The notes under the pieces: generated by a model
Seen by the model: the letters and a program-made list of their open reading frames with translations, nothing else
Database searches by the model: none
Told to the model about the DNA's origin: nothing
Program-made: the position numbers and the translations under genes
From: an uncultured Bacilli bacterium
Lineage (GTDB): Bacteria > Bacillota_I > Bacilli_A > RF39 > UBA660
NCBI GenBank assembly: GCA_934101595.1
Contig: CAKORR010000004.1
Span: forward strand, 99,050 to 131,049
DNA: 32,000 bases
Reading direction: 5' to 3'
Shown: positions 6,264 to 21,047 of the stretch, in pieces
How positions within the stretch are numbered: position 1 is the stretch's first letter
How the letters are laid out: the number at the start of each line of letters is the position of its first letter

Positions 6264-7757
6264 ATGAAACACTTAAAAAAATTGCTAGTACTTATAATGG
6301 CTTTAATATCATTTAGTATAAGTGCAAGTGCTAAGGAAGAATTTACTATCGATACGAAAAAGCTTACTGGTTTATCAGAAAGTAAAGATTACAAGTATTT
6401 AGCAATGGATAATTTTAGAGGATACGTTGAGGATGATATTTATCCTTTAAACAAGTATGTTAAGGATGTTGGCTTTTTGTTTGATGGACCCTTCTATAAT
6501 GATAAAGACTCTGATTATACTTTATATGGTATTGACGAAAATGGCAAAATAACTAAAACATATAAAATTAAAAGTGATTATTTAGGGTCAGAAAAAAAGA
6601 AGTTTGTTGAGCTAAAACGTGGAAATGATTCGTCGATGTGCTACATCCAAAAATGCACTAAGATAGGAGATAATATAACTTGTAAAGTTGATGCTTCATC
6701 ATTATTATTTGATTATGATAAATCAAAAGATCTAAACCAAAATTCTTCTGGAAGTGTGTTGATTGAGGACCCTTTATGGGGACACTATATTAATTATGAA
6801 AAGCAAAAAGGATTATATACTTTTATAGGAACTTTTGATGGAGTTTTAAAGAAAGCTGTATACTCAGAAGATGGTACTTTATTATTAGGACCTGTTAAAG
6901 AAAGTGATTTAAAAATAACTGGCTATGGTGGTGGCAGTTACGCTGTTAAAACCGAAAAAGATAATGACACAATATATAAGTTTGCTTTAAGTAATGGAAC
7001 TAGCGAAGAATTGTCTTTGGCTAAAGTAAAAGAATGGACAAAAGCTGTAACTGTAGAATCTATAACACCATATGTTGCAAGCGAGAACTTAGCTTACTAT
7101 ATAGTTGTTACGGGAAATGGAACATATATTATAACTAAAGATGGAATGGCTAGCCAAAGCACATGGAAGAAAGATATTTTACTAAAGTATAATGGTGAAG
7201 ATATTTATGTATTAGAAGATGACAAAAGATATGATTTTAATCATTCGGAAATAGCAAGTACATTGATAAGAAAAACCAATGATTCCAAATTAAAAGTTTT
7301 GGAAGACGAGAAAGATATAATCGTTAATTATGATGGCAAAGAAGTCTTAAAGAAAAGTAAAAAAGACATGTCTGATAAAGAGTTTTACCTAAGGTATTTA
7401 GGAAATATTGATGATAATCATTATTTTATTTCTATTACCCCAGTCGAAGATGATACTAATTTTGAAACTCGTGAAAATGTTAACGAATCATTCATGTTAG
7501 TTTTAAATAAAAAAACTATTAAAGAAGAAGAGCCAAAAAAGGATGATAATAAACCAATAACTTGTAAAGAGGTTAATGGTATATATTATGATACTAAAGG
7601 AAATAAGGTAAGTAAAAAGGATTATAAGGCCTTATGTGGTGCTGTAAAGCCAGTAGATACTGGTTATGTAGTTCCAGCTTTATCTCTAATGATTCTAGGC
7701 TGTTTATTCCTATTTACTAAGAGACATAAAAAGCTAAATAAAATAGAACATATTTAA
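6264..7757 (+). CDS. Secreted, C-terminally membrane-anchored surface protein of unknown function
   Basis: Signal peptide MKHLKKLLVLIMALISFSISASA. C-terminal hydrophobic segment VVPALSLMILGCLFLF followed by the basic tail TKRHKK. No recognisable catalytic motif. Confidence 0.75.
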   Translation: MKHLKKLLVLIMALISFSISASAKEEFTIDTKKLTGLSESKDYKYLAMDNFRGYVEDDIYPLNKYVKDVGFLFDGPFYNDKDSDYTLYGIDENGKITKTYKIKSDYLGSEKKKFVELKRGNDSSMCYIQKCTKIGDNITCKVDASSLLFDYDKSKDLNQNSSGSVLIEDPLWGHYINYEKQKGLYTFIGTFDGVLKKAVYSEDGTLLLGPVKESDLKITGYGGGSYAVKTEKDNDTIYKFALSNGTSEELSLAKVKEWTKAVTVESITPYVASENLAYYIVVTGNGTYIITKDGMASQSTWKKDILLKYNGEDIYVLEDDKRYDFNHSEIASTLIRKTNDSKLKVLEDEKDIIVNYDGKEVLKKSKKDMSDKEFYLRYLGNIDDNHYFISITPVEDDTNFETRENVNESFMLVLNKKTIKEEEPKKDDNKPITCKEVNGIYYDTKGNKVSKKDYKALCGAVKPVDTGYVVPALSLMILGCLFLFTKRHKKLNKIEHI

Positions 7758-7801
7758 GAGAGAAGAAAGATATATTTCTTTTCTTTTTGTAAAGGAGCAA
7801 T

Positions 7802-9040
7802 ATGAAAAAAATAAAATATTTAATATTTATATTATTAATGGTTGTGGCTAATACTGCGTATGTAAAAGCCTATGAAAAGGATAATAGTGGATGTATTATT
7901 TCTTATGATATGTTTAGGGATAAGCCAGTTTTGATTGATAGTGAAAACTATTACTTTCTTAAATGTAATAAGGACAATCTTCAAGAAAAACTTAATAATA
8001 ATGAGATTATGGTTAGTGATTTAAACTTAGACAAAAATGATTTAACAAAGTTTTCTAAAAAATTATATGATATGATTTATGAAACCCTAGATAATTATTT
8101 TTCACTTTACAGTGGCGATGATGAATTGATTAATGTTTTAAATGTTATGATTAATCCTGGAAAAAGTAATAAAGATTTTTCAGTTGTTATTAATTTTGCA
8201 AATACAAATGATGAGGGATTTACTAGTCCTGATCCTAAATATAGTATAAGCAAAATGCAACTTAATGTTGTGGATGGTGAGTATTTAGAATATGATAAGG
8301 ATAAAACTAGTAATAATAAGTATGCTTATCAAATTCAATATGCTTTTTTTAGAAATATATTAAATCGGGTTACGAATGAATACTTTGAAATTGATAGTAA
8401 TGTTTGCTCTCAAGATTATTCTAATGAAGATAATTCTTATGAAAAAAATGGCTTTTATTTGACAAATGATGATTCTTCGGATCAATATTACTTTAAAATA
8501 AATCTAAATAAAATAACTGTAAATACCACCACAGATATCTATCGTTATTGCAAATATATAAATAATCTTCCTCTTAGTATTGATAGTAAGTCAAAATATA
8601 GTTGTCTTTATTATGAATGCTCTTTCTTTCTAGATAACAAAGAGTTTCATATGGCTTTTGATAAGGATACTAAAGAAATTTATTTAGAAAAAGAAGAAGG
8701 CACATTAGATATTTTTGATTTGACTGATAAAGCTGCTATAAATATGCTTGTAAAAAATTATCAAGAAGTAAATAATTTGCCTGATAGCTTTTATGAGGCA
8801 TATTTGAACGCTTATTCAGCTGGGTTTACTCTTAAGGATAATCATATGGGGTTCAGCGATAATAATAAAATTTTTAAAATTAAAATACTTGATGAAGTTA
8901 TTATTCCTTCTATAAAAAAGGAAGATAATAATATAAATTCAATGTCGGAGGTTATCATAATCGGTGCTTGCGTATTAATTTTATTCACGTCTATACTTTT
9001 TATTTTAAAAAAATCGAAAGAGAATAAGGAGGAAAAATGA
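7802..9040 (+). CDS. Type-I membrane-anchored surface protein, paralog family A (copy 1)
   Basis: Signal peptide (..ANTAYVKA|YEKDNSGC) and a C-terminal TM plus basic tail (VIIIGACVLILFTSILFILKKSK). Shares the motifs KDNSGC, YY(Y)F..C.K(D/N)N, VVDGEYL.Y and FKINLNK with the next gene. Confidence 0.8.
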   Translation: MKKIKYLIFILLMVVANTAYVKAYEKDNSGCIISYDMFRDKPVLIDSENYYFLKCNKDNLQEKLNNNEIMVSDLNLDKNDLTKFSKKLYDMIYETLDNYFSLYSGDDELINVLNVMINPGKSNKDFSVVINFANTNDEGFTSPDPKYSISKMQLNVVDGEYLEYDKDKTSNNKYAYQIQYAFFRNILNRVTNEYFEIDSNVCSQDYSNEDNSYEKNGFYLTNDDSSDQYYFKINLNKITVNTTTDIYRYCKYINNLPLSIDSKSKYSCLYYECSFFLDNKEFHMAFDKDTKEIYLEKEEGTLDIFDLTDKAAINMLVKNYQEVNNLPDSFYEAYLNAYSAGFTLKDNHMGFSDNNKIFKIKILDEVIIPSIKKEDNNINSMSEVIIIGACVLILFTSILFILKKSKENKEEK

Positions 9041-10356
9041 AAAAGAATATTAAATACATAATACTAATATTTTTAATGATGATAGTATTTAATGATCCCG
9101 TTTATGCATCAATTAAAGATAATTCTGGCTGCTATAAAGTTCATCAACTTAATTCCATATTTTCTTCTACAAATTACTATAGAACTAATTTTTACGTCGA
9201 TGATGATTATTACTATTTTGTTTCTTGTGACAAAAACAATAAAATTAAATCATTAGAAGATAAATTAAATGATGGCTCATTATCTATTGATAGTCTAGCA
9301 AAATATAGTATTACTTATATAAAAATTGCGTCAGATACCATGGAAAATGTAAAAAATATACTTGAAAATATCATGATACCAGAAATAGATTCCCATGTTT
9401 ATGGTGATTATAGCCAAATTTTAAGTGGGATTTCCATGACTATGTTTGATGTAGATACTCCAAAAGATTTCTCAATTAAAATTGATTTTGTGCTAGATAA
9501 CCTAAGTAATAGTATTACTTTTAGAGTTGTGGATGGTGAATATCTAAAATACTTAAGTGCGGTCAAAACAAGTAAGAATGCTTCTTTTGTAATAGAAAAA
9601 ATTTATTTAAATATTTTAAATTCTATTGCTTGGAAAAGTGGCTATACTAGTAATGAGGGTGCAGTAGTTTATTCTTTAAAAAATAAAAACAGTTACACTT
9701 ATTCTGCAAATGGTTTTGAGATAGGCTCAGAAGAGTCATTTAAAATAAATTTAAATAAAGTTGATTTTTCAAATAATTTTGGTAGTGAGGAATATCAAGA
9801 AAAAATTAGCTTTTTATACAGATTTATGAGTTATGCTGTTGCTGATTATCGCTCTTTATACAGATTTATGAGTTATGCTGATTATTGCTCTTTGGACGAA
9901 TTAAAATGTCAATTTTATAACGATTTAGGAGATAATATATATACAATTGACTTTAATAATAATAAAATACACGGCTATTCAAATAATTTGGACATAAATA
10001 AAGAAAATGAAAAATTAGTAAGAAATATAATTAATAAATTTGTATATGTATATAGTTTCCGTGATTATAGTTTCCTTGAAGATGGCACAACAAGAAACTT
10101 TATTGATTTTACTACGACAAATTTAAAAGACTATAATTTCAAAAAAAATGGTATTGAGTATAGAGAGGTTGATAAAAATAAAAAAGAAACCTATTCATTT
10201 TATTTTAATTTTAACAATGTCTCTTTAAATATAAGCAATGATGATTATGAGATAAGTAATTTTAATTTAAGAGATATAATTATAATAGGTGTAATTGCAT
10301 CTTGTTTATTAATATCTACTATAATATTAATATTGAAACGTAAGAAAAGCAAATAA
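9037..10356 (+). CDS. Type-I membrane-anchored surface protein, paralog family A (copy 2)
   Basis: ATGA overlap with the previous gene. Signal peptide (..NDPVYA|SIKDNSGC), shared motifs as above, C-terminal TM IIIIGVIASCLLISTIILIL plus KRKKSK. Confidence 0.8.
   Translation: MKKNIKYIILIFLMMIVFNDPVYASIKDNSGCYKVHQLNSIFSSTNYYRTNFYVDDDYYYFVSCDKNNKIKSLEDKLNDGSLSIDSLAKYSITYIKIASDTMENVKNILENIMIPEIDSHVYGDYSQILSGISMTMFDVDTPKDFSIKIDFVLDNLSNSITFRVVDGEYLKYLSAVKTSKNASFVIEKIYLNILNSIAWKSGYTSNEGAVVYSLKNKNSYTYSANGFEIGSEESFKINLNKVDFSNNFGSEEYQEKISFLYRFMSYAVADYRSLYRFMSYADYCSLDELKCQFYNDLGDNIYTIDFNNNKIHGYSNNLDINKENEKLVRNIINKFVYVYSFRDYSFLEDGTTRNFIDFTTTNLKDYNFKKNGIEYREVDKNKKETYSFYFNFNNVSLNISNDDYEISNFNLRDIIIIGVIASCLLISTIILILKRKKSK
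9809..9889 (+). repeat. In-frame tandem duplication (42 nt then about 39 nt) inside the surface-protein gene
   Basis: gctttttatacagatttatgagttatgctgttgctgattatc (9809-9850) is followed by gctctttatacagatttatgagttatgctg---attattgctc (9851-9889). The protein reads SFLYRFMSYAVADYR / SLYRFMSYADYCS. Confidence 0.9.
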
Positions 10357-10362
10357 GAATAT

Positions 10363-10415
10363 AAGCAGGAAAGAGTAGTATTTTAATCAAAATAATACAA
10401 TTTCTTGCTTTTATT
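10363..10415 (+). terminator. Long imperfect hairpin plus U-rich tail; probable terminator of the surface-protein operon
   Basis: aagcaggaaa (10363-10372) pairs with tttcttgctt (10401-10410), 10 bp with one G-U. There is an inner tatttt/aaaata stem, followed by ttatt. Confidence 0.45.
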
Positions 10416-10442
10416 ATGCTCAAAATAAGATATTAAATATAA

Positions 10443-10470
10443 TTGAAAAAAAGAAAATATGTGCTAGAAT
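10443..10470 (+). promoter_or_regulatory. Promoter of ATPase paralog A
   Basis: TTGAAA (10443-10448), 16-nt spacer ending in TGc (extended -10), TAGAAT (10465-10470). GAGGTG RBS at 10478-10483, ATG at 10489. Confidence 0.55.
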
Positions 10471-10488
10471 ATAGCTCGAGGTGTTTTA

Positions 10489-12378
10489 ATGGGGGATCAG
10501 GGATTAACTTTATTGTCTGAAGGACAAATTTGGGGAAATGATAGTGAACCCCAATTAGAAGTAATTAGAAAATATGGCGTAAGAGCTGCATTTACCGATT
10601 TATGTGCTTTAACAGGAGGCCATATGTATGACGATACCTGTTTAAATGTTAATGAAGATAACACTTTAGAAGGAAGAAGCGGTTGGTTTTGGACTAAGAC
10701 TTGCAAGGAAAATTGTGTTTGTGTTGTTGTCAAAAATGGCACCAAAAGCACTAGAAATAGTTATTCGAGTGGTTGCGCAGTTAGGCCAATATTACAATCT
10801 TCCCAAATATTTTCTCGAATTACGCAAAACAGAGTAAGGGGATACAATGGAACAGAAGAAGTAGAATATGGGGAATATCCTCAAAATGTTCCAGACTTCA
10901 AAAAGCAAAATGCACTATGGGCAGAATATAATAGGGGAATGAGTAAAACCGGTAGAAGTTATACATTCAACTCAACAAAGTTTGATGGTAAAAAAACCGA
11001 GATCAATATAGATACATATGCCGAGTATGAATTTCAAGGAAAAAAATATATTCTTGTAAAAGCTAATTTTTATTCTTCTGTTTTTGAATGCGTTTTATCT
11101 AATGGCATCAAATATAAAAAAGATGATTATGTCTGGGTAGAAGTATCACCAGTTAAGTGGCTTATAGATGATAATACAGGAATTTTAATTTCAAAAAAAG
11201 GGCTTGTTTCTGGAGTGACGTTTCTTGATAAAAAGAAACAATATAAAGGAAACTTTAGCAAAACCAAAATGAAAGATTATCTTGATAACTACATGTTTCA
11301 TGATTTAACGCAAAACATATCACCTATTCAAGAAGAAAATTTAGAGGGGCAATTAAAGGAAGAGAAAAACGTCTATAATTTTAATATGAATAAAGTAAGT
11401 GAAGAAGAAATTATAAGAGGAGCAATAGAAAGTGGTGTGGCAGTATTCTTGCATGGACCATCTAGTGAAGGTAAATCAGCAAGGGTAAAACAAATAGATC
11501 CAACTTGTGAAATTATTTATTTAAGAAATGCAACACCGGATAGTTTAAACGGGAAAAGCGTGTATAATGCAAGTACCGGAGAAATGATTGATGTTAAACC
11601 ATCATGGCTTAAAAAACTTGAAGCTAAATGTGAACAAGAGCCAGAAAGACTTCATGTATTATTTTTAGATGAAATAACTAATGCTCTACCTAGTATACAA
11701 GGAATGGCATTTAATATAGTCTTGAATGGAGAAGTAAATGGCATTTGGAAATTGCCAGAAAACGCTAGAATTGTAGCAGCAGGAAATGATATGAAAGATT
11801 CATTAGCTGCAAATCAATTGGCAGAACCATTGTTTAATAGATTTGCACATGTATATATTAAAACAACAACTGAAAGTTGGTTAAAGTGGGCCAGTGAAAA
11901 TAATATACATCCAGCAATTTATTCATATATTGCTTATAAGAATGGAGAAACACTCCGAAGTAAATATGATGGTGAATATCCTAATGCTGATCCGAGAAAG
12001 TGGGAAATGGCTTCTAAAATGCTCTATAAAACCGGGAGGCCAGAAATGTTAAGGGCATTAGTAGGTGAAGATATAACAAGGGAATTTGTACAATTTTATA
12101 ATCAAAGAGTAATAACATTAGATGATGTAATAAATGGAAATTATAATGATAAAGATGTACAGGGATTAAATACCGCTGAAAGATATGCTACAACCATGGG
12201 ATTATCTTGTGTTAGCGAAGAAAATTTAGAAGTAGTAAGGGATTTTGCGAATATACTAGGCAAAGAATTTAAGACAGTTTTTGATTCTTTATGGACACAT
12301 GGCGATGAAAAAAGGTTAGAAAGACTTGCCGAAGCAAAACTTGCTGAAATGCAAAAAGGCGTTTCAAGAAAGCTATGA
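10489..12378 (+). CDS. MoxR-like AAA+ ATPase with a roughly 300-aa variable N-terminal domain (paralog A)
   Basis: Walker A GPSSEGKS (11455-11478), Walker B HVLFLDEITNA (MoxR-like DEIxxA), sensor-1 IVAAGN, LAEPLFNRF (compare MoxR LPEAQLDRF). The N-terminus carries LLSEGQ..RAA.TD....GWFWTKT....AVRPIL and VWVEVSPVKWLID..GIL(I/V)SKKGL, which resembles the DUF6273-type module (from memory). Confidence 0.85.
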   Translation: MGDQGLTLLSEGQIWGNDSEPQLEVIRKYGVRAAFTDLCALTGGHMYDDTCLNVNEDNTLEGRSGWFWTKTCKENCVCVVVKNGTKSTRNSYSSGCAVRPILQSSQIFSRITQNRVRGYNGTEEVEYGEYPQNVPDFKKQNALWAEYNRGMSKTGRSYTFNSTKFDGKKTEINIDTYAEYEFQGKKYILVKANFYSSVFECVLSNGIKYKKDDYVWVEVSPVKWLIDDNTGILISKKGLVSGVTFLDKKKQYKGNFSKTKMKDYLDNYMFHDLTQNISPIQEENLEGQLKEEKNVYNFNMNKVSEEEIIRGAIESGVAVFLHGPSSEGKSARVKQIDPTCEIIYLRNATPDSLNGKSVYNASTGEMIDVKPSWLKKLEAKCEQEPERLHVLFLDEITNALPSIQGMAFNIVLNGEVNGIWKLPENARIVAAGNDMKDSLAANQLAEPLFNRFAHVYIKTTTESWLKWASENNIHPAIYSYIAYKNGETLRSKYDGEYPNADPRKWEMASKMLYKTGRPEMLRALVGEDITREFVQFYNQRVITLDDVINGNYNDKDVQGLNTAERYATTMGLSCVSEENLEVVRDFANILGKEFKTVFDSLWTHGDEKRLERLAEAKLAEMQKGVSRKL

Positions 12379-12479
12379 AAGATAAAAGAGAAATGTTTTT
12401 ATCATATATTAAAGCTAATGTGATTGATAAAATTGATTTGATTTCTAAAAAAAATAAGAATATAAGCAGGAAAGAGTAG
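12375..12479 (+). pseudogene. Truncated, internally deleted remnant of the 130-aa AAA-like gene, left at the duplication junction
   Basis: MKDKREMFLSYIKANV|IDKIDLISKK matches codons 1-16 and about 73-82 of the intact gene at 14476. A 168-nt in-frame deletion (equivalent to 14523-14690) is flanked by gt microhomology. The frame then reads into duplicated intergenic sequence and stops at TAG 12477-12479. Confidence 0.75.
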
Positions 12480-12516
12480 TATTTTAATCAAAATAATACA
12501 ATTTCTTGCTTTTATT
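12464..12516 (+). terminator. Duplicated copy of the 10363-10415 hairpin; would insulate paralog A from paralog B
   Basis: Sequence identical to 10363-10415 at an offset of 2101. Confidence 0.4.
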
Positions 12517-12543
12517 ATGCTCAAAATAAGATATTAAATATAA

Positions 12544-12571
12544 TTGAAAAAAAGAAAATATGTGCTAGAAT
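12544..12571 (+). promoter_or_regulatory. Promoter of ATPase paralog B and downstream genes
   Basis: Identical copy of 10443-10470: TTGAAA, 16 nt, TGcTAGAAT. Confidence 0.55.
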
Positions 12572-12589
12572 ATAGCTCGAGGTGTTTTA

Positions 12590-14479
12590 ATGGGGGATCA
12601 GGGATTAACTTTATTGTCTGAAGGACAAATTTGGGGAAATGATAGTGAACCCCAATTAGAAGTAATAAAAAAATACGGCGTAAGAGCTGCAGTCACGGAT
12701 CTATGTATTTTAACTGGTTGTTTTTTATTTGAAAATACTGAAACTGGTAGAACTGGTTTGTTTTGGACTAAATCTGATGCTGGTGATAGTGATGTCTATT
12801 CAGTTGTTGAGAATGGTTATAAAAGCATCATATGTAGTTTTGCACGCCGTGGTGCAGTTAGGCCAATATTACGATCTTCTGAAATATCTTCTCAAATTAC
12901 ACAAAACAGAGTAAGGGGATACAATGGAACAGAAGAAGTAGAATATGGGGAGTATCCTCAAAATGCTGCGGATTCAAGAATGCAAAATATACTAGAGTTA
13001 GAATATAATAGGGGAATGTATAAAACAGGAAGAAGTTACACATTTAATTCTATGAAATATGATGACTATAGTACAGGATTTAAACCTGTAACTTATGAAG
13101 AATATGAATATCAAGGAAAAAAATATATTCGTATAAAAGCTAACTTTCAAACCCCTGAAAAATATAAACTATCCAATGGTATTGAATACGAAATTGATGA
13201 CTATGTCTGGGTGGAAGTGTCACCAGTTAAGTGGCTTATAGATGAAGATACAGGAATTTTAGTTTCAAAAAAAGGTTTACTTTCTGGTATAAGATTTGAT
13301 GGTACTAATTATAAAGGTGATTTTGATAGAACAGAAATGAAAAAATACCTTGATAACTACATGCTTCGAGATTTATCTCAAATTATAACATATGCTAGTG
13401 TTCAAGATATGGCCCCAGAAGAAAAAGCTCAATTTGAAAAAAAACAAAAAGAAGCTGAAATAAGAAGAAATCCTTATGGTTTTAAATTTGAACAAGTAAG
13501 CGAAGAAGAAATTATAAGAGGAGCAATAGAAAGTGGTGTGGCAGTATTCTTGCATGGACCATCTAGTGAAGGTAAATCAGCAAGAGTAAAACAAATAGAT
13601 CCAACTTGTGAAATAATATACCTTCGTAATGCAACACCAGATAGTTTAAATGGAAAGAGTGTGTATAATAGTGCAACAGGTGAGATGATAGATATTAAAC
13701 CAAGTTGGCTTAAAAAAGTAGAAGAAAAGTGTGAAAATGGACCAGATAGATTTCATGTAGTATTTTTTGATGAAATAACAAATGCATTACCAAGTATTCA
13801 AGGTATAGCATTTAATATAGTTTTAGATAGAGAAGTAAATGGTATTTGGAAACTACCAGAAAACGCTAGAATTGTAGCAGCAGGAAATGATATGAAAGAG
13901 TCATTAGCTGCCAATCAATTGGCAGAACCATTGTTCAATAGATTTGCACATGTATATATTAAAACAACAACTGAAAGTTGGTTAAAGTGGGCCAGTGAAA
14001 ATAATATACATCCAGCAATTTATTCATACATTGCTTATAAGAATGGAAAAACACTACGAAGTAAATATGATGGTGAATATCCAAATGCTGATCCTAGAAA
14101 ATGGGAAATGGCATCTAAAATGCTTTATAAAACCGGTAGTCCAGAAATGTTAAGGGCATTAGTAGGTGAAGATATAACAAGAGAATTTGTAAAATTTTGT
14201 AATCAAAAAGTAATAACATTAGATGATGTAATAAATGGAAATTATAATGATAAGGATATACAGGAATTAAATACCGCTGAAAGATATGCCACAATCATGG
14301 GATTATCTTGTGTTAGCGAAGAAAATTTAGAAGTAGTAAGGGATTTTGCAAATATACTAGGCAAAGAATTTAAAACAATTTTTGATTCTTTATGGACACA
14401 TGGTGATGAAAAAAGGTTAGAAAGACTTGCCGAAGCAAAACTTGCTGAAATGCAAAAAGGAGTTTCAAGAAAGCTATGA
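12590..14479 (+). CDS. MoxR-like AAA+ ATPase with a variable N-terminal domain (paralog B)
   Basis: Same 629-aa architecture as paralog A. Walker A at 13556-13579, VVFFDEITNA, IVAAGN, LAEPLFNRF. The C-terminal half is nearly identical to A at protein level; the N-terminal half is diverged in patches with indels. Confidence 0.85.
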   Translation: MGDQGLTLLSEGQIWGNDSEPQLEVIKKYGVRAAVTDLCILTGCFLFENTETGRTGLFWTKSDAGDSDVYSVVENGYKSIICSFARRGAVRPILRSSEISSQITQNRVRGYNGTEEVEYGEYPQNAADSRMQNILELEYNRGMYKTGRSYTFNSMKYDDYSTGFKPVTYEEYEYQGKKYIRIKANFQTPEKYKLSNGIEYEIDDYVWVEVSPVKWLIDEDTGILVSKKGLLSGIRFDGTNYKGDFDRTEMKKYLDNYMLRDLSQIITYASVQDMAPEEKAQFEKKQKEAEIRRNPYGFKFEQVSEEEIIRGAIESGVAVFLHGPSSEGKSARVKQIDPTCEIIYLRNATPDSLNGKSVYNSATGEMIDIKPSWLKKVEEKCENGPDRFHVVFFDEITNALPSIQGIAFNIVLDREVNGIWKLPENARIVAAGNDMKESLAANQLAEPLFNRFAHVYIKTTTESWLKWASENNIHPAIYSYIAYKNGKTLRSKYDGEYPNADPRKWEMASKMLYKTGSPEMLRALVGEDITREFVKFCNQKVITLDDVINGNYNDKDIQELNTAERYATIMGLSCVSEENLEVVRDFANILGKEFKTIFDSLWTHGDEKRLERLAEAKLAEMQKGVSRKL

Positions 14480-14868
14480 AAGATAAAAGAGAACTGCTTT
14501 TATCATATATTAAAGCTAATGTTGCACCAATATTAGTAGATTTTATATCTGGTGGAGATTTGAATGGTGCAGTTGTAGTACCAGCTAGTGTTGATGTTAA
14601 AGAATTAAATGGTCATTATGATGGAGCGGACTTTATGCCTCCTAAATGGCTTAATGAAATATTAAGTACAAATGCTAGTAAAATATTAGTGATTGATAAA
14701 ATTGATTCGATTTCTAAAAAAGAGCAATTAAAGTTTTGTGAATTGTTAGAGCATCGAAAAATATCTACATTTGAATTACCTGAAAATTGTATAATTATTG
14801 TTACTGCAAATGAAATAAATAAAGATAAAATAAGTGAAGAAATATTTTCGTTAGTTGTGCGAATTTGA
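14476..14868 (+). CDS. 130-aa degenerate AAA-core paralog (pseudo-ATPase: no Walker A Lys, no Walker B Glu, no Arg finger)
   Basis: ATGA overlap with paralog B. It aligns by eye to the ATPase core: APILVDFISGGDLNGA vs VAVFLHGPSSEGKSA; PPKWL vs KPSWL; ILVIDKIDS vs VLFLDEITN; ELPENCIIIVTAN vs KLPENARIVAAGN. Confidence 0.7.
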   Translation: MKDKRELLLSYIKANVAPILVDFISGGDLNGAVVVPASVDVKELNGHYDGADFMPPKWLNEILSTNASKILVIDKIDSISKKEQLKFCELLEHRKISTFELPENCIIIVTANEINKDKISEEIFSLVVRI

Positions 14869-14878
14869 GGTGTATTTT

Positions 14879-16405
14879 ATGAAATATGATATAACAGTAT
14901 TAAAAAGAAAAATGCTTGTTAAATATCCTTTTTTTGGGAGTGTAGTAGCAAGTGTAGATTATAAAGAAAACGAGGATATTCCAACCGCAGGCACAGATGG
15001 AGAAACAATTTACTATAATCCTAAATATTTAGAAAGTTTAAGTGTTGAAGAACAAACTTTTATATTTGCTCATGAAGTATGTCATATTGCATTTAATCAT
15101 ATCTTAAGAAGTGAAGGCAAAGATCCAGAGTTATGGAATATTGCTACAGATGGTGTTATTAATCAGTTTTTAAAACGAGACGGATTAAAAATGACTCTGG
15201 GTGGTGTTGATATGGCAGAAGCTATTAATTACGATGCTGAACAGTTATATGACAAACTATTACAAGAAAAACAACAAAGACAACAACAAAATGGACAAGG
15301 TAATAGTCAAAGCGAACAAGGTAATCATCAACAAAATCAACAACAAAGCAGTGGTAGTAGTCAAGGCGAAAATGGTCAACAACAATCTCAATCACAACAG
15401 CAAACTGGCGATTCACAAAATCAAGAAGACCAGAAACAAGATAGTAAAGCAGGACAAAGTGGAGATGAACAGCAACAATCTCAACAACAAAATAGTTCTA
15501 ATAGTGGAAATTCACAAGAAGAAGATAAATCAAAGCAAGATGTTGGCCATGATACTCACAGTATGTGGGAGAAAGCAGTTAAAAAGCACAAGGAGCAGCA
15601 AGAAAAATCTGATAAAAAAGAGAGCTTATTAGATAAACTTTTAGGAAAAGATACAAAAGAAAAAGAAACAACTGAACTTGAAAAGAAACAGGAAGAACTT
15701 GAAAGTATGGGAGAAAAAGATGCTTTTAAAAAGAATCTTGAAATAAAAAAGAAACAACTGGAAGACTTAAAAGAAGAAATATCTAAAGAAGCTTCGCAGG
15801 CAGGCATATCAACGAATAGAGATATTAGAACAGTTAATGATATAGGTACTGCTAAACCACTAATTGATTGGAGATATATTTTAAAAGAATCTATTATGTA
15901 TGATGTTGATTGGTCATATAAAAATGCTACATTAGAAGATGGAGTTGTTACTGCTAATTTAGAAGAACAACCAATGCCGGAAACTGAAATTGTTCTTGAT
16001 ACAAGTGGCTCAGTAAATGAAGTATTATTAAATAACTTTTTAAGGGAATGTAAGAATATATTACAACATACTAAATTAAAAGTAGGATGTTTTGACACAG
16101 AATTTTATGGATTTCATGAAATTAGAACAGAAGAAGATATAGAAAATATGAGATTTGAAGGTGGTGGAGGAACTGATTTTGATGTTGCTGTAGGTGCTTT
16201 TTCAAGACGAGTTCTAAATAAAATAATTTTTACTGATGGTGAAGCTCCAATGCCAGTTATGTCACTTGATGCAACCTGGATAGTTTTTGGTAGTAATAGA
16301 ATTAATCCATTAGGAGGAAACGTATTTTATATAGATAATGTAACACTCGAAAAATTAAATAACAGTGAAACGACTAGCAAATCAAAAAAAAGAATAAAAA
16401 ACTAA
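14879..16405 (+). CDS. Zn-metallopeptidase-like (HExxH) plus VWA/MIDAS protein, DUF2201-type architecture, with a long Q-rich and K/E-rich linker
   Basis: HEVCH at 15071-15085. VWA MIDAS elements LDTSGS (15998-16012), GGGGTDF and IIFTDGEAP. The start is taken as ATG 14879 (GAGGTG RBS 14867-14872) rather than the ORF-track TTG at 14855. Confidence 0.85.
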   Translation: MKYDITVLKRKMLVKYPFFGSVVASVDYKENEDIPTAGTDGETIYYNPKYLESLSVEEQTFIFAHEVCHIAFNHILRSEGKDPELWNIATDGVINQFLKRDGLKMTLGGVDMAEAINYDAEQLYDKLLQEKQQRQQQNGQGNSQSEQGNHQQNQQQSSGSSQGENGQQQSQSQQQTGDSQNQEDQKQDSKAGQSGDEQQQSQQQNSSNSGNSQEEDKSKQDVGHDTHSMWEKAVKKHKEQQEKSDKKESLLDKLLGKDTKEKETTELEKKQEELESMGEKDAFKKNLEIKKKQLEDLKEEISKEASQAGISTNRDIRTVNDIGTAKPLIDWRYILKESIMYDVDWSYKNATLEDGVVTANLEEQPMPETEIVLDTSGSVNEVLLNNFLRECKNILQHTKLKVGCFDTEFYGFHEIRTEEDIENMRFEGGGGTDFDVAVGAFSRRVLNKIIFTDGEAPMPVMSLDATWIVFGSNRINPLGGNVFYIDNVTLEKLNNSETTSKSKKRIKN

Positions 16406-18518: not shown

Positions 18519-18531
18519 AATGGAGGTAAAT

Positions 18532-19929
18532 ATGAGTAGTATATTAAAAACAGTAGATGAATATATTAAAAAGTTTAATGCTTTACCATCTAAATATAGT
18601 GAGGTAATTAAATTTTTACATGGCTTAGATGATGTATTAAAAAATTATAGTTATGATGATTTGGCAAGATATATTTTAGATATACTAAATAAATATCCAA
18701 TTATAAAAGAGGCATTAGAAGAAGTAAGAAAGAACAAAGACATTAATAACTTTCGTGGTTTATCATTTACTAATGTAGCTTTGGATGTCACAGATGATAG
18801 TGCGATTGAAAAAAATTATTATACGAGTTCTTCAATTCAACAATATTTTCTTGATATTTCTAAGTATCCTTTACTTACTTTAGAGCAAGAAATCTATTAT
18901 GCCAAACTTAAGAGCAAAGGTGATAAAAAAGCTAGAGAGACTCTAATTACTTCCAATTTGAGATATGTAGCATTTAGAGTTTCAAAATATAATTTTAAAG
19001 AAAACGATATACTTGATTACATTCAAGCTGGGAACATTGGCCTTATGAAAGCCGTTGATAATTATGATTATCGAAAAGGTTTTAGATTAACTACTTATGC
19101 AACAGCATGGATATCCAGAGAAATTCAAGAGTGCAAGACTGGAAAAAATAGAGGAATTCATTTAAGCGTAAGAAATGATAGTCAAATTAGGAGCATGGAA
19201 AAATTAGATGAATTTTTTCAAGAAAAGTTTGGTAGAAATCCTAGAATAGATGAGTATTCAGTTCTTTTAGATTTATCAAAAGATTTTGTAAGAAGTCTTT
19301 ACAATCAAAAAAATGGAGTTAGGAGTCTAAATGACCCAATATCTAGTGATGATAATACCACGGAGTTATTGGATTTTGTAATGGATAATGAAACCAAATC
19401 TGTTGAAGATACAGTTGAAGATAATTTAAATAATAGCATTGTAAGAGAAGCTATTTTAAAAATTGATGTTCCTAAAAAAAGTAAAGATATTATTAGATAC
19501 AGATATGGTTTTGTTGATGGAAAGCCTCATACTTTGGAAGATACAGGAAGAATATATGATGTAACTAGAGAAAGAATTAGGCAAATTGAGAAAAAAACAT
19601 TAAAAAAACTTGGTAATTATTTAAAAAGCTATTATGGATATACAAGCCCTGAAATTGTTAAAAGAACCAAATCTATAAGGGAAGAGGAAAGTGATTTTAT
19701 AAATCCTTTTAGAATGTTTAAAATGTATGATAAAAAAGATGTTATAGAGGCTATTAATATGCTCTCCGACGAAGATAGAGAAATCTTAATGAGTGTTTAC
19801 GATTACAATAGAAATACTATTAATAAGAATAATATTAGTCCAGATTTTATGAAAAATTATTATTTCAATATTCTTGTGAAAATTGGTGATAATTTGCATC
19901 AAGGTATTGTATTAAAGAGGGATAAATAA
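18532..19929 (+). CDS. Sigma-70 family RNA polymerase sigma factor (SigA-like regions 1.2-4.2 with extra N- and C-terminal extensions)
   Basis: IQQYFLDISKYPLLTLEQE (region 1.2), NLRYVAFRVSKY / YIQAGNIGLMKAVDNYDYRKGFRLTTYATAWI (region 2), RYRYGFVDGKPHTLEDTGRIYDVTRERIRQIEKKTLKKL (region 4). Start taken at ATG 18532; the ORF track gives 18520. Confidence 0.8.
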   Translation: MSSILKTVDEYIKKFNALPSKYSEVIKFLHGLDDVLKNYSYDDLARYILDILNKYPIIKEALEEVRKNKDINNFRGLSFTNVALDVTDDSAIEKNYYTSSSIQQYFLDISKYPLLTLEQEIYYAKLKSKGDKKARETLITSNLRYVAFRVSKYNFKENDILDYIQAGNIGLMKAVDNYDYRKGFRLTTYATAWISREIQECKTGKNRGIHLSVRNDSQIRSMEKLDEFFQEKFGRNPRIDEYSVLLDLSKDFVRSLYNQKNGVRSLNDPISSDDNTTELLDFVMDNETKSVEDTVEDNLNNSIVREAILKIDVPKKSKDIIRYRYGFVDGKPHTLEDTGRIYDVTRERIRQIEKKTLKKLGNYLKSYYGYTSPEIVKRTKSIREEESDFINPFRMFKMYDKKDVIEAINMLSDEDREILMSVYDYNRNTINKNNISPDFMKNYYFNILVKIGDNLHQGIVLKRDK

Positions 19930-21047
19930 TGGAATTTTTTAGTAAACTAAATGAAGAACTAAGTGAAATAGTATTTAATAATGATATAGTTAGTTATCTT
20001 TCTTTGCTTGAGGAAGTTTTAAGCAATAATACTTTTGTTAATGAGTGTGATTATTTTGCTGTAATTAACGAATCAACAATTTTAAGAGATAAATTAAAAG
20101 AACTCGAAGAGTATTTAGCTCATTTTGAAAATTGTAAATTAACCATGTTAAAATTCCCTGTACTAAATGAATTATACGATACTTATCTTTTTATGTTTTC
20201 TAATGATAATCAGGATGCTTATGATGTATATAGTGTGGATGCCACTGAACAGTACTTAAAATTAATTAGAAAATATAGACTTCTTACTGCTGAAGAAGAG
20301 TATGAATTATCAAAAAAAATAGCCATGGGTGATAAAGAAGCCAGAGAAAAGTTAATAAATCATAATTTGCGACTTGTTGTAAAAATTGCTTTTCGTTTTA
20401 GAAATCACGGAAGAGATATTAGTGATTTAATCCAAGATGGTAATCTAGGACTTATAAAAGCTGCAAAATTATATGATTATACTTCCGGATGTCGTTTTTC
20501 AACCTATGCTTATAGGCAAATTTTTGCAAAAATAAGAAGAGAAATAGATAATAATAAAAATGCCATAAGAAAACCAATTTGGGCATCAGATTTGTGGAAG
20601 AAAGCCGAGGATGTTAAACGTGACTATTATGGTGAGCATCAAAAAAACTTAAGTTTAGAAGAAGTTGCTAAAATACTTAATGTTAGAGAAAGTACATTAC
20701 AATATGCATATTTAGATAATAGAAGAGTTCATATTACGGCTAAAAAAAGCGATGGCGATTTAATTGATAGTGATCCTTTATTAAATATTGCTGATCAAGG
20801 TAGTCTCTTAGAAGATAAGGTCGAACTCAAAATATTATTGGAGGAAATAAAAAATTATTTAATAATGAGCAATTTTAGTGAGAGAGATATTGATATTTAT
20901 TTTTCTTGCTTGTATGATGCGAAAAGAAAAGATTTATCAGAAAAATATGGTATAACTAGCGAAAGAGTTAGCCAAATAGATAGAAGAGTTAGCAAAAATG
21001 TTTGTATGTATTTAAAAAAAGAGCCAAAGAAGCGTTATTCAATTTGA
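19929..21047 (+). CDS. Second sigma-70 family sigma factor, translationally coupled to the first
   Basis: TAATG overlap. YLKLIRKYRLLTAEEEYELSKKIAMGDKEAREKLINHNLRLVVKIA, DLIQDGNLGLIKAAKLYDY..GCRFSTYA, region 4.2 YGITSERVSQIDRR. The conserved aromatic pair after STYA is absent (YAYRQIFAKI). Confidence 0.8.
   Translation: MEFFSKLNEELSEIVFNNDIVSYLSLLEEVLSNNTFVNECDYFAVINESTILRDKLKELEEYLAHFENCKLTMLKFPVLNELYDTYLFMFSNDNQDAYDVYSVDATEQYLKLIRKYRLLTAEEEYELSKKIAMGDKEAREKLINHNLRLVVKIAFRFRNHGRDISDLIQDGNLGLIKAAKLYDYTSGCRFSTYAYRQIFAKIRREIDNNKNAIRKPIWASDLWKKAEDVKRDYYGEHQKNLSLEEVAKILNVRESTLQYAYLDNRRVHITAKKSDGDLIDSDPLLNIADQGSLLEDKVELKILLEEIKNYLIMSNFSERDIDIYFSCLYDAKRKDLSEKYGITSERVSQIDRRVSKNVCMYLKKEPKKRYSI

Follow-up and report, generated by a model that had tools for sequence, protein, structure and literature searches.

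The window analysed here, a 32,000-nucleotide stretch of the genome of an uncultured Bacilli bacterium, contains a cassette of four intact open reading frames, all on the forward strand: two sensor-ATPases (A1 and A2), a small ATPase paralogue (B) and a VWA protein with a peptidase-like domain (C). What is such a combination of proteins for? From the sequence comparisons, the cassette is probably a retargetable sensor-and-protease system, since a reverse-transcriptase (RT) system hypermutates the binding head of the ATPase in related species. That this soluble, cytoplasmic sensor-ATPase-peptidase machine acts in conflict with invaders is the reading we favour, at somewhat better than even chances.

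Organisation of the cassette

The cassette extends from position 10351, the exact first base of a 2.1-kb tandem duplication unit, to position 16405, the end of C. The first unit opens with the promoter and leader of A1 (10351..10488, +, including a GAGGTG ribosome-binding site), with a promoter-like site TTGAAA-16-TAGAAT with extended -10 TG at 10443-10470 (+), followed by A1 itself (10489..12378, +). A second copy of the promoter/leader (12458..12589, +; promoter-like site at 12544-12571) has 100% nucleotide identity to 10357-10488 and precedes the A1 paralogue A2 (12590..14479, +), each ATPase being preceded by the promoter-like sequence TTGAAA-16-TGnTAGAAT. Between A1 and A2, a second B gene survives in part (12379..12457, +), with its 5' end and an internal 33 nucleotides (97% identical to 14689-14721); it is a leftover from a tandem duplication that included both ATPase and B. 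The intact gene B (14476..14868, +) starts with an ATG that overlaps the stop codon of A2 as ATGA. C (14879..16405, +) most likely starts at ATG 14879, 7 nucleotides after a GAGGTG ribosome-binding site, and this start is favoured over the TTG at 14855 that had been assumed before.

The upstream flank contains murD, murG, murB, ftsQ and queH and the genes of three proteins with a signal peptide or transmembrane anchor; rpsB-tsf lies downstream. There are no mobility genes within the cassette block, and flanks and promoter-like sites agree with the original prediction of a block with its own promoters between surface-protein genes and the rpsB-tsf operon. A sister strain with 98.3% identity has the same four genes, all intact, and the flanking core genes are conserved too. 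A1, A2, B and C all lack a predicted signal peptide or transmembrane segment, which indicates a cytoplasmic localisation of all four proteins.

The four proteins

A1 and A2 (629 amino acids each) had been described as an N-terminal domain joined to a MoxR-type AAA+ core, and this is borne out by both reading frames, their motifs and the PHROG and NorQ matches given below. In A1, a DUF6273-like N-terminal domain (residues 1 to ~105) is followed by a beta-rich middle domain (residues ~120-275), a disordered linker (residues 276-300), the AAA+ core (residues ~305-455) and an all-helical C-terminal region. The two proteins are 76% identical overall and ~93% identical in the ATPase half; the most divergent part is the N-terminal region around residues 45-100. 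Their nucleotide identity is a mosaic that ranges from 33% to 100%, indicating old paralogues with later gene conversion, and within the ATPase core the nucleotides have diverged (72-83%) while the protein is nearly identical, indicating purifying selection.

Walker A (GPSSEGKS), Walker B ((L/V)F(L/F)DEIT), sensor-1 (VAAGN) and LFNRF are common to both ATPases. In A1 these motifs span 11455..11844 (+), with Walker A at 11455-11478, Walker B (LFLDEIT) at 11659-11679, sensor-1 at 11773-11787 and LFNRF at 11830-11844 (all +); family-wide, 101 of 108 copies have intact ATPase motifs. Pfam AAA profiles match the window ATPases only below threshold (AAA_5 E=0.047, Sigma54_activat E=0.0046), and sequence or profile searches of the PDB recovered none of NorQ/NorD, RavA/ViaA and CbbQ/CbbO. 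The assignment of A1 and A2 to the AAA+ proteins is supported by the match to PHROG 1297 ('ATPase', E ~1e-46) and by the PDB matches of an AlphaFold model (mean pLDDT 79.7): NorQ ranked first, NorQ-NorD complexes were matched as well, and MCM, NtrC1 and RavA followed. Judged from this model, the core appears closest to the MoxR-class ATPases.

B is a 130-residue paralogue of the AAA+ alpha/beta core without a P-loop. Its profile aligns with ATPase residues 307-455 (97.8% probability, E=7.5e-13), with ILVDFISGG in place of the Walker A region and VIDK in place of hhhDE; a sensor-1-like IIVTAN is kept. The missing GK[ST] and the DK in place of DE identify B as a pseudo-ATPase, and together with the ATGA overlap and the profile match agree with its earlier description as a translationally coupled, dead AAA-core paralogue. 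The length of 130 residues is fixed across the 1,554 clusters of the B family.

C (508 amino acids) matches DUF2201_N (E=1.2e-35) and the DUF2201 VWA domain (E=9.7e-12) of Pfam as well as PHROG 1314 (E ~1e-61), with a low-complexity linker of ~200 residues rich in Q, S, E and K in the middle. The zincin motif HEVCHIAFNH (HExxHxxxxH; 15071-15100, +) and the MIDAS residues (DTSGS at 15998-16012, T within GGGGTDF at 16160-16180 and D within FTDGEA at 16229-16246, all +) are kept across relatives, in line with the predicted combination of an HExxH peptidase-like and a MIDAS-bearing VWA domain. Of the profile matches that had been expected for the cassette, those to DUF2201_N and DUF2201 VWA were thus strong, and those to AAA_5 and DUF6273 stayed below threshold in the window.

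By sequence, the ATPase/VWA-peptidase pair is homologous to the gp24/gp25 core module of phage N4. The cassette could be a domesticated or remnant phage module with a part in phage-type processes, for example in assembling particles or tailocins or in letting a cryptic element exclude superinfection, and not a sensor system of the host. Both PHROG matches are strong, each homologue has ~600 phage records, JWAlpha and other N4-like phages have the two genes side by side, and gp24 and gp25 are among the 14 core genes of these phages (PMC4193335). However, no other phage genes are found in or near the cassette, whose flanks are core genes kept in the sister strain; phage homologues lack the ~300-residue N-terminal region, with matches starting near residues 250-300; the small phage ORFs between the gp24 and gp25 homologues are unrelated to B, of which neither JWAlpha nor vB_Ecl_SABI, the two phages compared, has a homologue; and purifying selection has kept the module in over 70 species. 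We consider such a phage-type role quite unlikely.

The variable head is a DGR target in related species

The DUF6273 match of the window ATPase is below threshold (E=0.0077), that of a relative (P0272) is above it (27.3 bits), and the matches fall on the C-terminal part of the profile, which supports the DUF6273 assignment that had been raised as a possibility. DUF6273 has been described as a C-type-lectin-like target of diversity-generating retroelements (DGRs), with the variable region at its C-terminus (PMC10743442, PMC11792537). A Foldseek search of the low-confidence N-terminal model (pLDDT 62.7) against PDB and BFVD returned nothing below E=0.02 and so gave no confirmation of a C-type-lectin fold.

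Of the 55 species loci that could be assessed, 12 carry an intact RT just upstream of the ATPase, in 11 cases with Avd and a template repeat, and seven further loci have RT remnants. L010, L019, L026, L028, L030, L031, L034, L035, L046, L055 and L080 each have an Avd-like gene, a template repeat and an RT immediately in front of the ATPase. In L010, L019, L026, L030, L031 and L080, the 72 mismatches between template repeat and variable region are without exception on template adenines, and among 115 natural variants variability is limited to ~16 codons, with entropy peaks only at AAY/AAA-templated codons. These data show the DUF6273-like domain of the ATPase to be a DGR target in relatives; this targeting, like the domain identities, is a result of the present sequence analysis. 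The N-terminal domain had been proposed to be a variable sensor or target-recognition module, and the DGR, the adenine-specific mismatches and the restriction to ~16 codons much strengthen this proposal. The link of the head to a DGR, the frozen state of the window copy and the kinship of the ATPase/VWA-peptidase pair with N4 gp24/gp25 are new beyond the first reading of the sequence.

The frozen copy in the window

The window contains no RT, Avd or template repeat. In A1, the equivalent of the variable region diversified in relatives is homologous to it and covers residues 77-102 (10717..10794, +; VCVVVKNGTKSTRNSYSSGCAVRPIL); in A2 it covers residues 69-94 (12794..12871, +; VYSVVENGYKSIICSFARRGAVRPIL) and is the only site in the window with detectable similarity to a template repeat of a relative. 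The DNA motif that closes the variable region in relatives has decayed in the window: in A1, the conserved 3' motif CGCCCAGCTTTG is swapped for AGGCCAATATTA. Both variable regions are identical in the sister strain. With the DGR components absent, the motif decayed and the strains identical, the window has two sensor variants in a frozen state, both with the same single effector pair.

Heads that are static between strains fit a fixed housekeeping specificity as well as a frozen immune receptor.

Loss of the DGR might also have left a decaying relic, functionless and drifting in the lineage of the window: RT, template repeat and Avd are missing, the 3' motif has decayed and the B copy between A1 and A2 is deleted. 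Yet the four reading frames are intact with complete catalytic motifs, the sister strain has the same four intact genes and the A1/A2 ATPase core is under purifying selection, and this reading is highly improbable.

Co-occurrence and genomic context

ATPase and C genes strictly co-occur, in the Bacilli clade together with B: every Bacilli-clade locus of sufficient length has ATPase-B-C, and the Clostridia clade has ATPase-C. The hosts are small-genome gut Bacilli, for example with a 1.46-Mb chromosome, and some Clostridia. Genomic contexts vary between loci, and some loci have ATPase arrays, with six copies in L016, four in L034 and three in L036. Two checks proposed for the defence assignment gave it no backing: PADLOC models matched none of the four proteins, and homologue neighbourhoods revealed no clear defence island, as three DNA methyltransferases and a handful of weak 'mad' matches were all that 150 flanking proteins from 27 loci yielded.

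For the alternative of a CobS/CobT-like pair, the one trace was a match to phrog_249 ('porphyrin biosynthesis') below threshold (E=0.0015), with no stretch passing alone. Tetrapyrrole or cobalamin genes were not identified among the Pfam-scanned window ORFs, a set that excludes the 520-residue ORF at 28602-30164.

The cassette could instead encode a classical MoxR-VWA maturation chaperone for metal insertion or remodelling of one dedicated host client, with the N-terminal domain as client-binding adaptor, modelled on NorQ/NorD, CbbQ/CbbO, CoxD/CoxE and RavA/ViaA. The best structural matches of the ATPase model (NorQ, NorQ-NorD complexes, RavA), the conserved MIDAS-VWA partner, variable regions that are the same in both strains and the position among housekeeping genes, adjoining surface-protein genes, are all consistent with a chaperone. 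However, there is no conserved client gene beside the module, whose context varies between loci; a housekeeping chaperone would not be expected to have a DGR directed at its adaptor, or arrays with as many as six paralogues that differ in their heads; and characterised pairs have no counterpart of the peptidase domain or the dead AAA subunit. A chaperone is unlikely.

A model for the cassette

For the favoured machine acting against invaders, we infer complex formation, the sensed ligand, the peptidase substrate and the role in conflict or defence as follows. In the 629-residue proteins, a small, variable, putatively ligand-binding head is joined to a MoxR-like AAA+ motor. The catalytically dead B probably joins or caps the ATPase ring. 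C, whose zincin peptidase is tethered by a long flexible linker, is probably held on this ring by its MIDAS-VWA domain, in the way that NorD binds NorQ. The head may bind a protein or other ligand of an invader, for example a phage; binding would be coupled to the peptidase through ATP-driven remodelling, the ATPase may gate peptidase activation as first proposed, and the peptidase would then cleave either the target caught by the head or a substrate of the host. Many relatives have a DGR (Avd, template repeat, RT) immediately upstream that rewrites the ~16 head codons; other species carry up to six ATPase paralogues whose heads differ, alongside just one or two B-C pairs. The window belongs to the array kind: an old tandem duplication gave the fixed heads of A1 and A2, which are accompanied by a single B and a single C. 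There is no DGR, and the variable regions have ceased to change.

The same architecture could serve self-regulation, with the head selecting host proteins for ATP-dependent degradation in the style of adaptor-guided AAA+ proteases: small-genome gut bacteria would retune their proteome or their interaction with a host or partner rather than fight invaders. The pairing of an AAA+ motor with a zincin peptidase, the cytoplasmic proteins, the reduced-genome gut hosts and the parallel in CPR bacteria, where CLec-AAA fusions are the commonest DGR target (PMC10907252), all fit, but threading of substrates into proteases is not known for MoxR-class ATPases and hypermutation of a receptor for self-proteins would be risky. 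Such self-regulation is improbable.

Comparison with known systems

DGR-diversified CLec domains are known in MoxR-vWA conflict systems (PMC7159879, PMC10907252), and by analogy the cassette appears to be a variant of the known DGR/MoxR-vWA systems, with new features. [quoted passage not shown] There, however, the FGS/CLec domain is C-terminal, on the vWA protein or a separate target, whereas in the cassette it is N-terminal on the ATPase; the third protein is VMAP with a trypsin or caspase effector, whereas the cassette lacks VMAP, has its zincin peptidase on the VWA protein itself and adds a dead AAA subunit; and they are enriched in multicellular cyanobacteria, actinobacteria and Chromatiales, whereas the hosts of the cassette are gut Bacilli with small genomes as well as some Clostridia.

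CLec-AAA ATPase fusions have been described as DGR targets in CPR bacteria (Paul et al. 2017 in PMC10907252; 'UVR4/Midasin', Wu et al. 2018, PMC5758913). They share with the cassette the direct fusion of a diversified domain to an AAA-type ATPase in reduced genomes. Their C-terminal region is described as detecting signals (PMC10907252), whereas the variable region of the cassette is ~80-100 residues from the N-terminus, and as far as these descriptions go, they report no VWA-zincin or dead-AAA partners.

With phage N4 gp24 (ATPase) and gp25 (vWFA, DUF2201), and with the MoxR and metallopeptidase-vWA pair of jumbo phages (PMC7824862), the cassette shares both homologous proteins, for gp24/gp25 as adjacent genes in the same order; unlike the cassette family, the gp24/gp25 pair lacks a DGR, and its VWA protein lacks the long low-complexity linker. 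One published proposal for the jumbo-phage pair is a virion-assembly chaperone (PMC7824862), and with no sensor head in the phage proteins, what the ancestral pair did may have had nothing to do with defence.

NorQ/NorD, RavA/ViaA and CbbQ/CbbO provide the closest solved folds of the ATPase core and a MIDAS-bearing VWA partner, but sequence similarity is below Pfam thresholds, and the cassette has no client enzyme nearby and in addition a variable head, a peptidase domain on the VWA partner and a dead AAA subunit. Finally, the DUF6273 targets of gut phages, tentaclins and Mtd-like proteins (PMC10743442, PMC11792537, bioRxiv 10.1101/2024.10.15.618418), have the same type of domain with a C-terminal variable region, in tentaclins also at the protein N-terminus; they are extracellular receptor-binding or decoration proteins in which Ig/Fn3 domains follow, whereas in the predicted cytoplasmic, bacterial proteins of the cassette the variable domain is followed by an AAA+ ATPase.

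Gene content and genomic setting of the cassette

The region 10351-16405 of the window contains four genes, all in one direction. A1 (10489-12378, + strand) and A2 (12590-14479, + strand) encode the two ATPases of 629 amino acids that were originally predicted: both open reading frames are present with intact motifs and the two proteins share 76% identity. They hardly differ in the C-terminal ATPase half, and divergence peaks at about amino acids 45-100 and in the linker preceding the ATPase. B (14476-14868, + strand, 130 amino acids) has a start ATG that overlaps the stop codon of A2. C (508 amino acids) is best placed at 14879-16405 (+ strand): this start has an upstream GAGGTG ribosome binding site and agrees with the gene call in the sister strain, which makes the TTG start at 14855 that had been predicted less likely. 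None of the four proteins has a segment resembling a transmembrane helix.

The flanks consist of core genes: murD, murG, murB, ftsQ and queH precede the cassette, and it is followed by rpsB, tsf, two sigma factors and frr; the tandem sigma-70-family genes (469 and 372 amino acids) directly follow tsf, at 18520-21047. tRNA and Rfam scans of the window found no element. Three open reading frames upstream of the cassette (6264-10356) encode proteins with a signal-like N-terminus and a C-terminal anchor. Among the proteins of this type, the adjacent ones of 412 and 439 amino acids (7802-10356, C-terminal transmembrane anchor, no Pfam match) are encoded by the stretch of the window that varies most between strains, by a wide margin, with up to 33 differences per 200 nucleotides to the syntenic contig of a sister strain (L084) and 0-5 elsewhere. 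A 42-nucleotide tandem duplication is present at 9809-9880.

A1 and A2 resemble MoxR ATPases

The ATPase motifs (Walker A GxxxxGK[ST], Walker B hhhhDE and a polar sensor-1 residue) are present as GPSSEGKS, LFLDEIT/VFFDEIT and VAAGN in A1, A2 and 101 of 108 copies from relatives, and the LFNRF motif is intact in both A1 and A2. The predicted matches to Pfam AAA_5 or AAA_3 are below threshold in the ATPases of the window (AAA_5 E=0.047, 14.1 bits at a cut-off of 22); of 25 diverse relatives, six match AAA_5 (best E=3.1e-6) and one matches AAA_3. PDB sequence and profile searches with the ATPase identified no AAA+ protein. The phage protein family PHROG 1297 ('ATPase') does match, with E about 1e-46. 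An AlphaFold model of A1 (mean pLDDT 79.7) was compared with the PDB by Foldseek: NorQ or NorQ-NorD structures take ranks 1, 2, 4, 6 and 7 (E=3e-7 to 5e-6, TM to target about 0.4), followed by RavA, NtrC1 and MCM, all of the helix-2-insert clade. The PHROG match, the AAA_5 matches of the relatives and the NorQ-like modelled fold make it reasonable to call A1 and A2 MoxR-like AAA+ ATPases of the helix-2-insert/PS1-hairpin clade; because the TM scores are modest, only 'MoxR-like' is supported, and the MoxR-type core of the original prediction stands in this wider sense and not as strict MoxR membership. The neighbouring gene for C, a MIDAS-bearing VWA protein, supplies the partner expected of this class.

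In an alignment of diverse relatives, the distant members P0128, P0134, P0138, P0171, P0199 and P0202 have a degenerate Walker A and/or Walker B motif; full-length, catalytically dead paralogues of the sensor-ATPase therefore appear to exist too.

Protein B is a probable dead AAA subunit

A profile of B aligns with ATPase residues 307-455 (97.8% probability, E=7.5e-13). The core strands and the sensor-1-like IIVTAN are retained, GK[ST] is absent and DK stands in place of DE. B is thus, judged by its motifs, a dead paralogue of the AAA core that has neither head nor lid, in agreement with the pseudo-ATPase that had been proposed. The possibility that B is a pseudogene is ruled out by its family, which comprises 1,554 clusters of almost uniform length, nearly all exactly 130 amino acids, and has neither a Pfam domain nor a name.

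The zincin-VWA gene comes after the ATPase gene in every sufficiently long locus, with the gene for the dead AAA protein between them in the Bacilli clade. In the Clostridia-clade loci L061-L082, including Zhenpiania and Lentihominibacter, the zincin-VWA gene is directly 3' of the ATPase gene and no B is detectable. A B-like subunit was also sought in phages: the small open reading frames between the gp24 and gp25 homologues of JWAlpha and vB_Ecl_SABI have no similarity to B.

Protein C and the phage gp24/gp25 pair

In Pfam, two domains are recognised in C, DUF2201_N (E=1.2e-35) and the VWA-like domain of DUF2201 (E=9.7e-12); PHROG 1314 also matches (E=1.4e-61), and both HEVCHIAFNH and the MIDAS residues (DTSGS, T, D; DxSxS pattern) are kept in relatives. 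C therefore belongs to the DUF2201 or N4 gp25-like zincin-VWA proteins, and the predicted combination of an HExxH peptidase-like domain with a MIDAS-bearing VWA domain holds. PDB sequence and profile searches with the ATPase, its N-terminal region and C returned noise, apart from one weak match of the HExxH region of C to the minimal zincin MJ1213 (E=0.047).

Between its peptidase and VWA domains, C has a long low-complexity linker (residues about 125-330, window 15250-15900), first Q/S/N-rich and then E/K-rich and containing imperfect repeats; the phage homologue profile (394 positions) lacks such a linker. In a few C proteins of loci L061-L082 an R replaces the first His of HExxH.

Homologues of the ATPase and of C are each found in about 600 phage records, and the two adjoin in N4-like phages. 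The annotation of phage JWAlpha notes their similarity to N4 gp24 and gp25, gp36 being the gp25-like protein with DUF2201_N. Gp24 and gp25 belong to the set of 14 core genes of N4-like phages and lack an assigned role (PMC4193335); for the jumbo-phage pair, a chaperone function in virion assembly was proposed (PMC7824862). Two less likely explanations for the cassette are a domesticated phage module and a dedicated maturation chaperone. The N-terminal 300 amino acids are absent from the phage ATPases, and a tblastn search with the head domain of A1 against 50,697 phage records gave no match.

Relatives of the ATPase are associated with a diversity-generating retroelement

More than 2,700 close full-length relatives of the ATPase are found in metagenomes, with 474 representatives below 1e-30 at 50% clustering. 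Searching species-representative genomes yielded 76 loci that, by record title, are mostly from uncultured gut 'Bacilli', 'Tenericutes', CAG:417, CAG:605 and Candidatus Faecisoma; a more distant clade is present in Clostridia such as Zhenpiania and Lentihominibacter.

In loci L002-L006, an open reading frame with the reverse transcriptase (RT) domain RVT_1 is immediately upstream of the ATPase gene, and a repeat search identified an 80-nucleotide upstream sequence that matches ATPase codons 80-107. By systematic pairing, template repeats (TR) with a matching variable region (VR) were found in L002-L006, L010, L019, L026, L028, L030, L031, L034, L046, L055 and L080. All 72 TR/VR differences in L010, L019, L026, L030, L031 and L080 are at template adenines; in L010, 12 of 12 mismatches are on the 26 adenines within 80 nucleotides, with a chance probability of about 1e-6. 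The RT of the relatives has an RVT_1 match at 1e-16, and its LGNQSSQ sequence resembles (I/L/V)GxxxSQ, the motif typical of RTs from diversity-generating retroelements (DGRs). The accompanying gene is similar to the accessory protein Avd, with bAvd and DivGenRetAVD matches both at E about 1e-5, under the curated cut-offs. Upstream sequence is sufficient for assessment at 55 loci: a full RT is present in 12 (accompanied by Avd in 11), RT fragments in seven and no RT in 36. In an alignment of 115 natural variants of a 70%-identity subfamily, only about 16 columns depart from near-zero entropy, and these coincide with AAY, AAA or AAG codons of the template. [quoted passage not shown]

The VR sits at the C-terminus of a segment similar to the second, C-terminal half of Pfam DUF6273. 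In the literature, DUF6273 is a DGR target resembling C-type lectins, and its VR is C-terminal (PMC10743442, PMC11792537, bioRxiv 10.1101/2024.10.15.618418). The DUF6273 match considered in the original prediction is sub-threshold for A1 (E=0.0077, 16.5 bits at a cut-off of 23.5, profile positions 122-168 only) and absent for A2; the relatives P0272 and P0294 score 27.3 bits (profile 77-168) and 23.1 bits. The precomputed annotation PF19789 is present on several relatives, and the DUF6273 profile is matched in its C-terminal half only. In the search for a C-type-lectin fold, a model of the N-terminal part alone, of low confidence (pLDDT 62.7), gave no Foldseek match of any kind below E=0.02 in PDB or BFVD. 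A circular permutation, with amino acids 1-105 as the C-terminal and 120-275 as the N-terminal half of DUF6273, is not supported: permuted sequences of six family members gave no better Pfam score, and the one alignment spanning 28-168 reached only 17.3 bits. Several relatives (P0271-P0279, P0283, P0289; about 880-940 amino acids) are about 270 amino acids longer and apparently have two tandem N-terminal head regions before the ATPase.

DGR decay and nonsense alleles

In L002-L006 (for example L002:9081-9937) the RT has an internal deletion, with residues about 37-105 gone and the reading frame split, and seven of 19 TR/VR mismatches are off adenines: this DGR is decaying. RT fragments upstream of the ATPase were also found in L008, L014, L017, L021, L025, L032 and L040. 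For the cassette of the window, a decaying relic is a rival explanation of low probability.

In some template repeats, the frame of the VR includes stop codons: L055 and L002 have TAA, and L080 has TGA (L055:8001-8260, L080:8001-8250 and L002:8891-8970). In the assemblies of L055 and L080, a single TGA within the VR interrupts the ATPase reading frame. An alternative genetic code was rejected as the reason, as all other Trp codons of these genes are TGG and their reading frames end normally. The stop codons in the templates and the TGA within the VR therefore indicate that the DGR makes nonsense alleles, and these could turn the sensor gene ON and OFF.

The window copy is probably a fixed, DGR-free version

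Tblastn with the RT and Avd proteins of relatives found neither in the 32-kb window, and in a sensitive blastn search with five Avd-TR-RT cores the only TR-like similarity was the VR of A2 itself. The DNA motif at the VR 3' end, CGCCCAGCTTTG, is invariant in all DGR-bearing loci but one (L034) and kept in many other loci; A1 and A2 read AGGCCAATATTA instead. The sister-strain contig L084, from a Hadza metagenome, has the same gene order and 98.3% identity over 21.9 kb, and both VRs are identical between the two strains; differences cluster in two places, the surface-protein genes and part of the core of A2. A1 and A2 derive from a 2.1-kb tandem duplication (10351-12421 versus 12452-14522), with a 132-nucleotide leader that is 100% identical and a mosaic coding identity of 33% to 98%; the intergenic sequence 12379-12457 is the deleted remnant of a second B gene. 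Because RT, Avd and TR are absent, the motif is lost, the VRs are identical in L084 and A1 and A2 are tandem-duplicated, the window copy is, judged by these 32 kb, a DGR-less, fixed version of the family.

A hot spot within the A2 ATPase core (13581-13800) has 42 differences to L084 in 200 nucleotides. Its position coincides with the stretch where A1 and A2 diverge in nucleotide but not in protein sequence, which suggests gene conversion between the paralogues.

Multi-copy arrays are found elsewhere, with six ATPase copies and two B-C pairs in L016, four copies in L034 and three in L036. Together with the DGR-free window, these arrays indicate that receptor diversity is maintained in this family in one of two alternating forms, either a single gene with a DGR or several fixed paralogues sharing one B-C pair.

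A possible function in conflict or defence

The comparison of loci shows a cytoplasmic protein in which a DGR-type variable head is joined to a conserved and apparently catalytically competent AAA+ motor. The variable head would bind a ligand, the VWA domain would dock on the ATPase ring as in NorQ-NorD, B may join or cap this ring, and ATP-driven remodelling would couple ligand binding to the peptidase.

A role in conflict or defence is predicted as the best fit, because of the DGR targeting, the paralogue arrays and the patchy distribution, and because MoxR-vWA systems diversified by DGRs are already on record (PMC7159879, PMC10907252). The PADLOC scan suggested in the original prediction matched no defence-system component in the cassette: with PADLOC-DB v2 models, A1 and A2 had no match, and those of B to Csn2 (E=0.0012) and of C to TmtA (E=0.051, low-complexity region) are at spurious level. 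Genomic contexts are unrelated between loci. Among 150 flanking proteins, PADLOC identified only three methyltransferases and weak 'mad' matches, a result with no background rate for comparison, and the neighbourhoods are not obviously defence islands.

As a whole, and tentatively, at somewhat less than even chance, we read the family as a protein-level, retargetable recognition-and-proteolysis system of human-gut bacteria. The DGR would rewrite a ligand-binding head seated directly on a MoxR-like AAA+ motor; several heads, from tandem arrays or as DGR-made alleles, would feed one common pair of dead AAA and VWA-zincin; stop codons in the template would let the sensor gene be switched ON and OFF; and the window would represent a 'germline-fixed' state, with two receptors retained after DGR loss. 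A less likely rival explanation is a self-directed programmable protease.

Significance and comparison with known systems

The window itself is the less striking, DGR-free state, and the interest lies in what the family reveals. DGRs are, to our knowledge, the only natural machines of targeted protein hypermutation in prokaryotes, and here the hypervariable domain sits directly on an ATPase motor with a peptidase partner, in the cytoplasm of abundant uncultured human-gut bacteria. If correct, the family would provide the first example, in unicellular gut Bacilli with reduced genomes, of a conflict system of the DGR-MoxR-vWA type, and the idea of a 'DGR-diversified antigen sensor' would extend to these Bacilli from multicellular cyanobacteria and proteobacteria. 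It would also supply a function for the orphan phage N4 gp24/gp25 module from which the family is built, and with it a lead on the role of this conserved phage core pair. Moreover, it would offer a compact three- or four-gene system to test the coupling of a variable receptor to an AAA+/VWA/peptidase effector, and the DGR-active, DGR-decaying and DGR-less loci would be a natural series for the loss of hypermutation and the fixation of receptors. Among the papers searched, none links DGRs to RF39-type bacteria, and almost no literature was found on DUF2201.

The vWA-MoxR VMAP ternary systems have a third gene, which encodes a VMAP protein bearing an effector or peptidase at its N-terminus (Kaur et al. 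2020). Judged by gene content, the cassette, which consists of A1, A2, B and C only, has no VMAP gene, and no Pfam or PADLOC match suggests one. DGR-linked ternary systems carry the variable domain on the vWA protein, use the separate VMAP protein as effector and occur in multicellular bacteria, whereas here the variable domain is on the ATPase N-terminus, the zincin is on the VWA partner and the hosts are small-genome gut Bacilli. We have not found this arrangement described: an N-terminal variable head on the ATPase, a zincin-VWA partner and an extra dead AAA subunit, with no VMAP. The closest described systems also include the CLec-AAA ATPase DGR targets of CPR bacteria, the DUF6273 phage receptor-binding proteins and the phage gp24/gp25 pair, and the family combines parts of all three with parts of the VMAP ternary systems.
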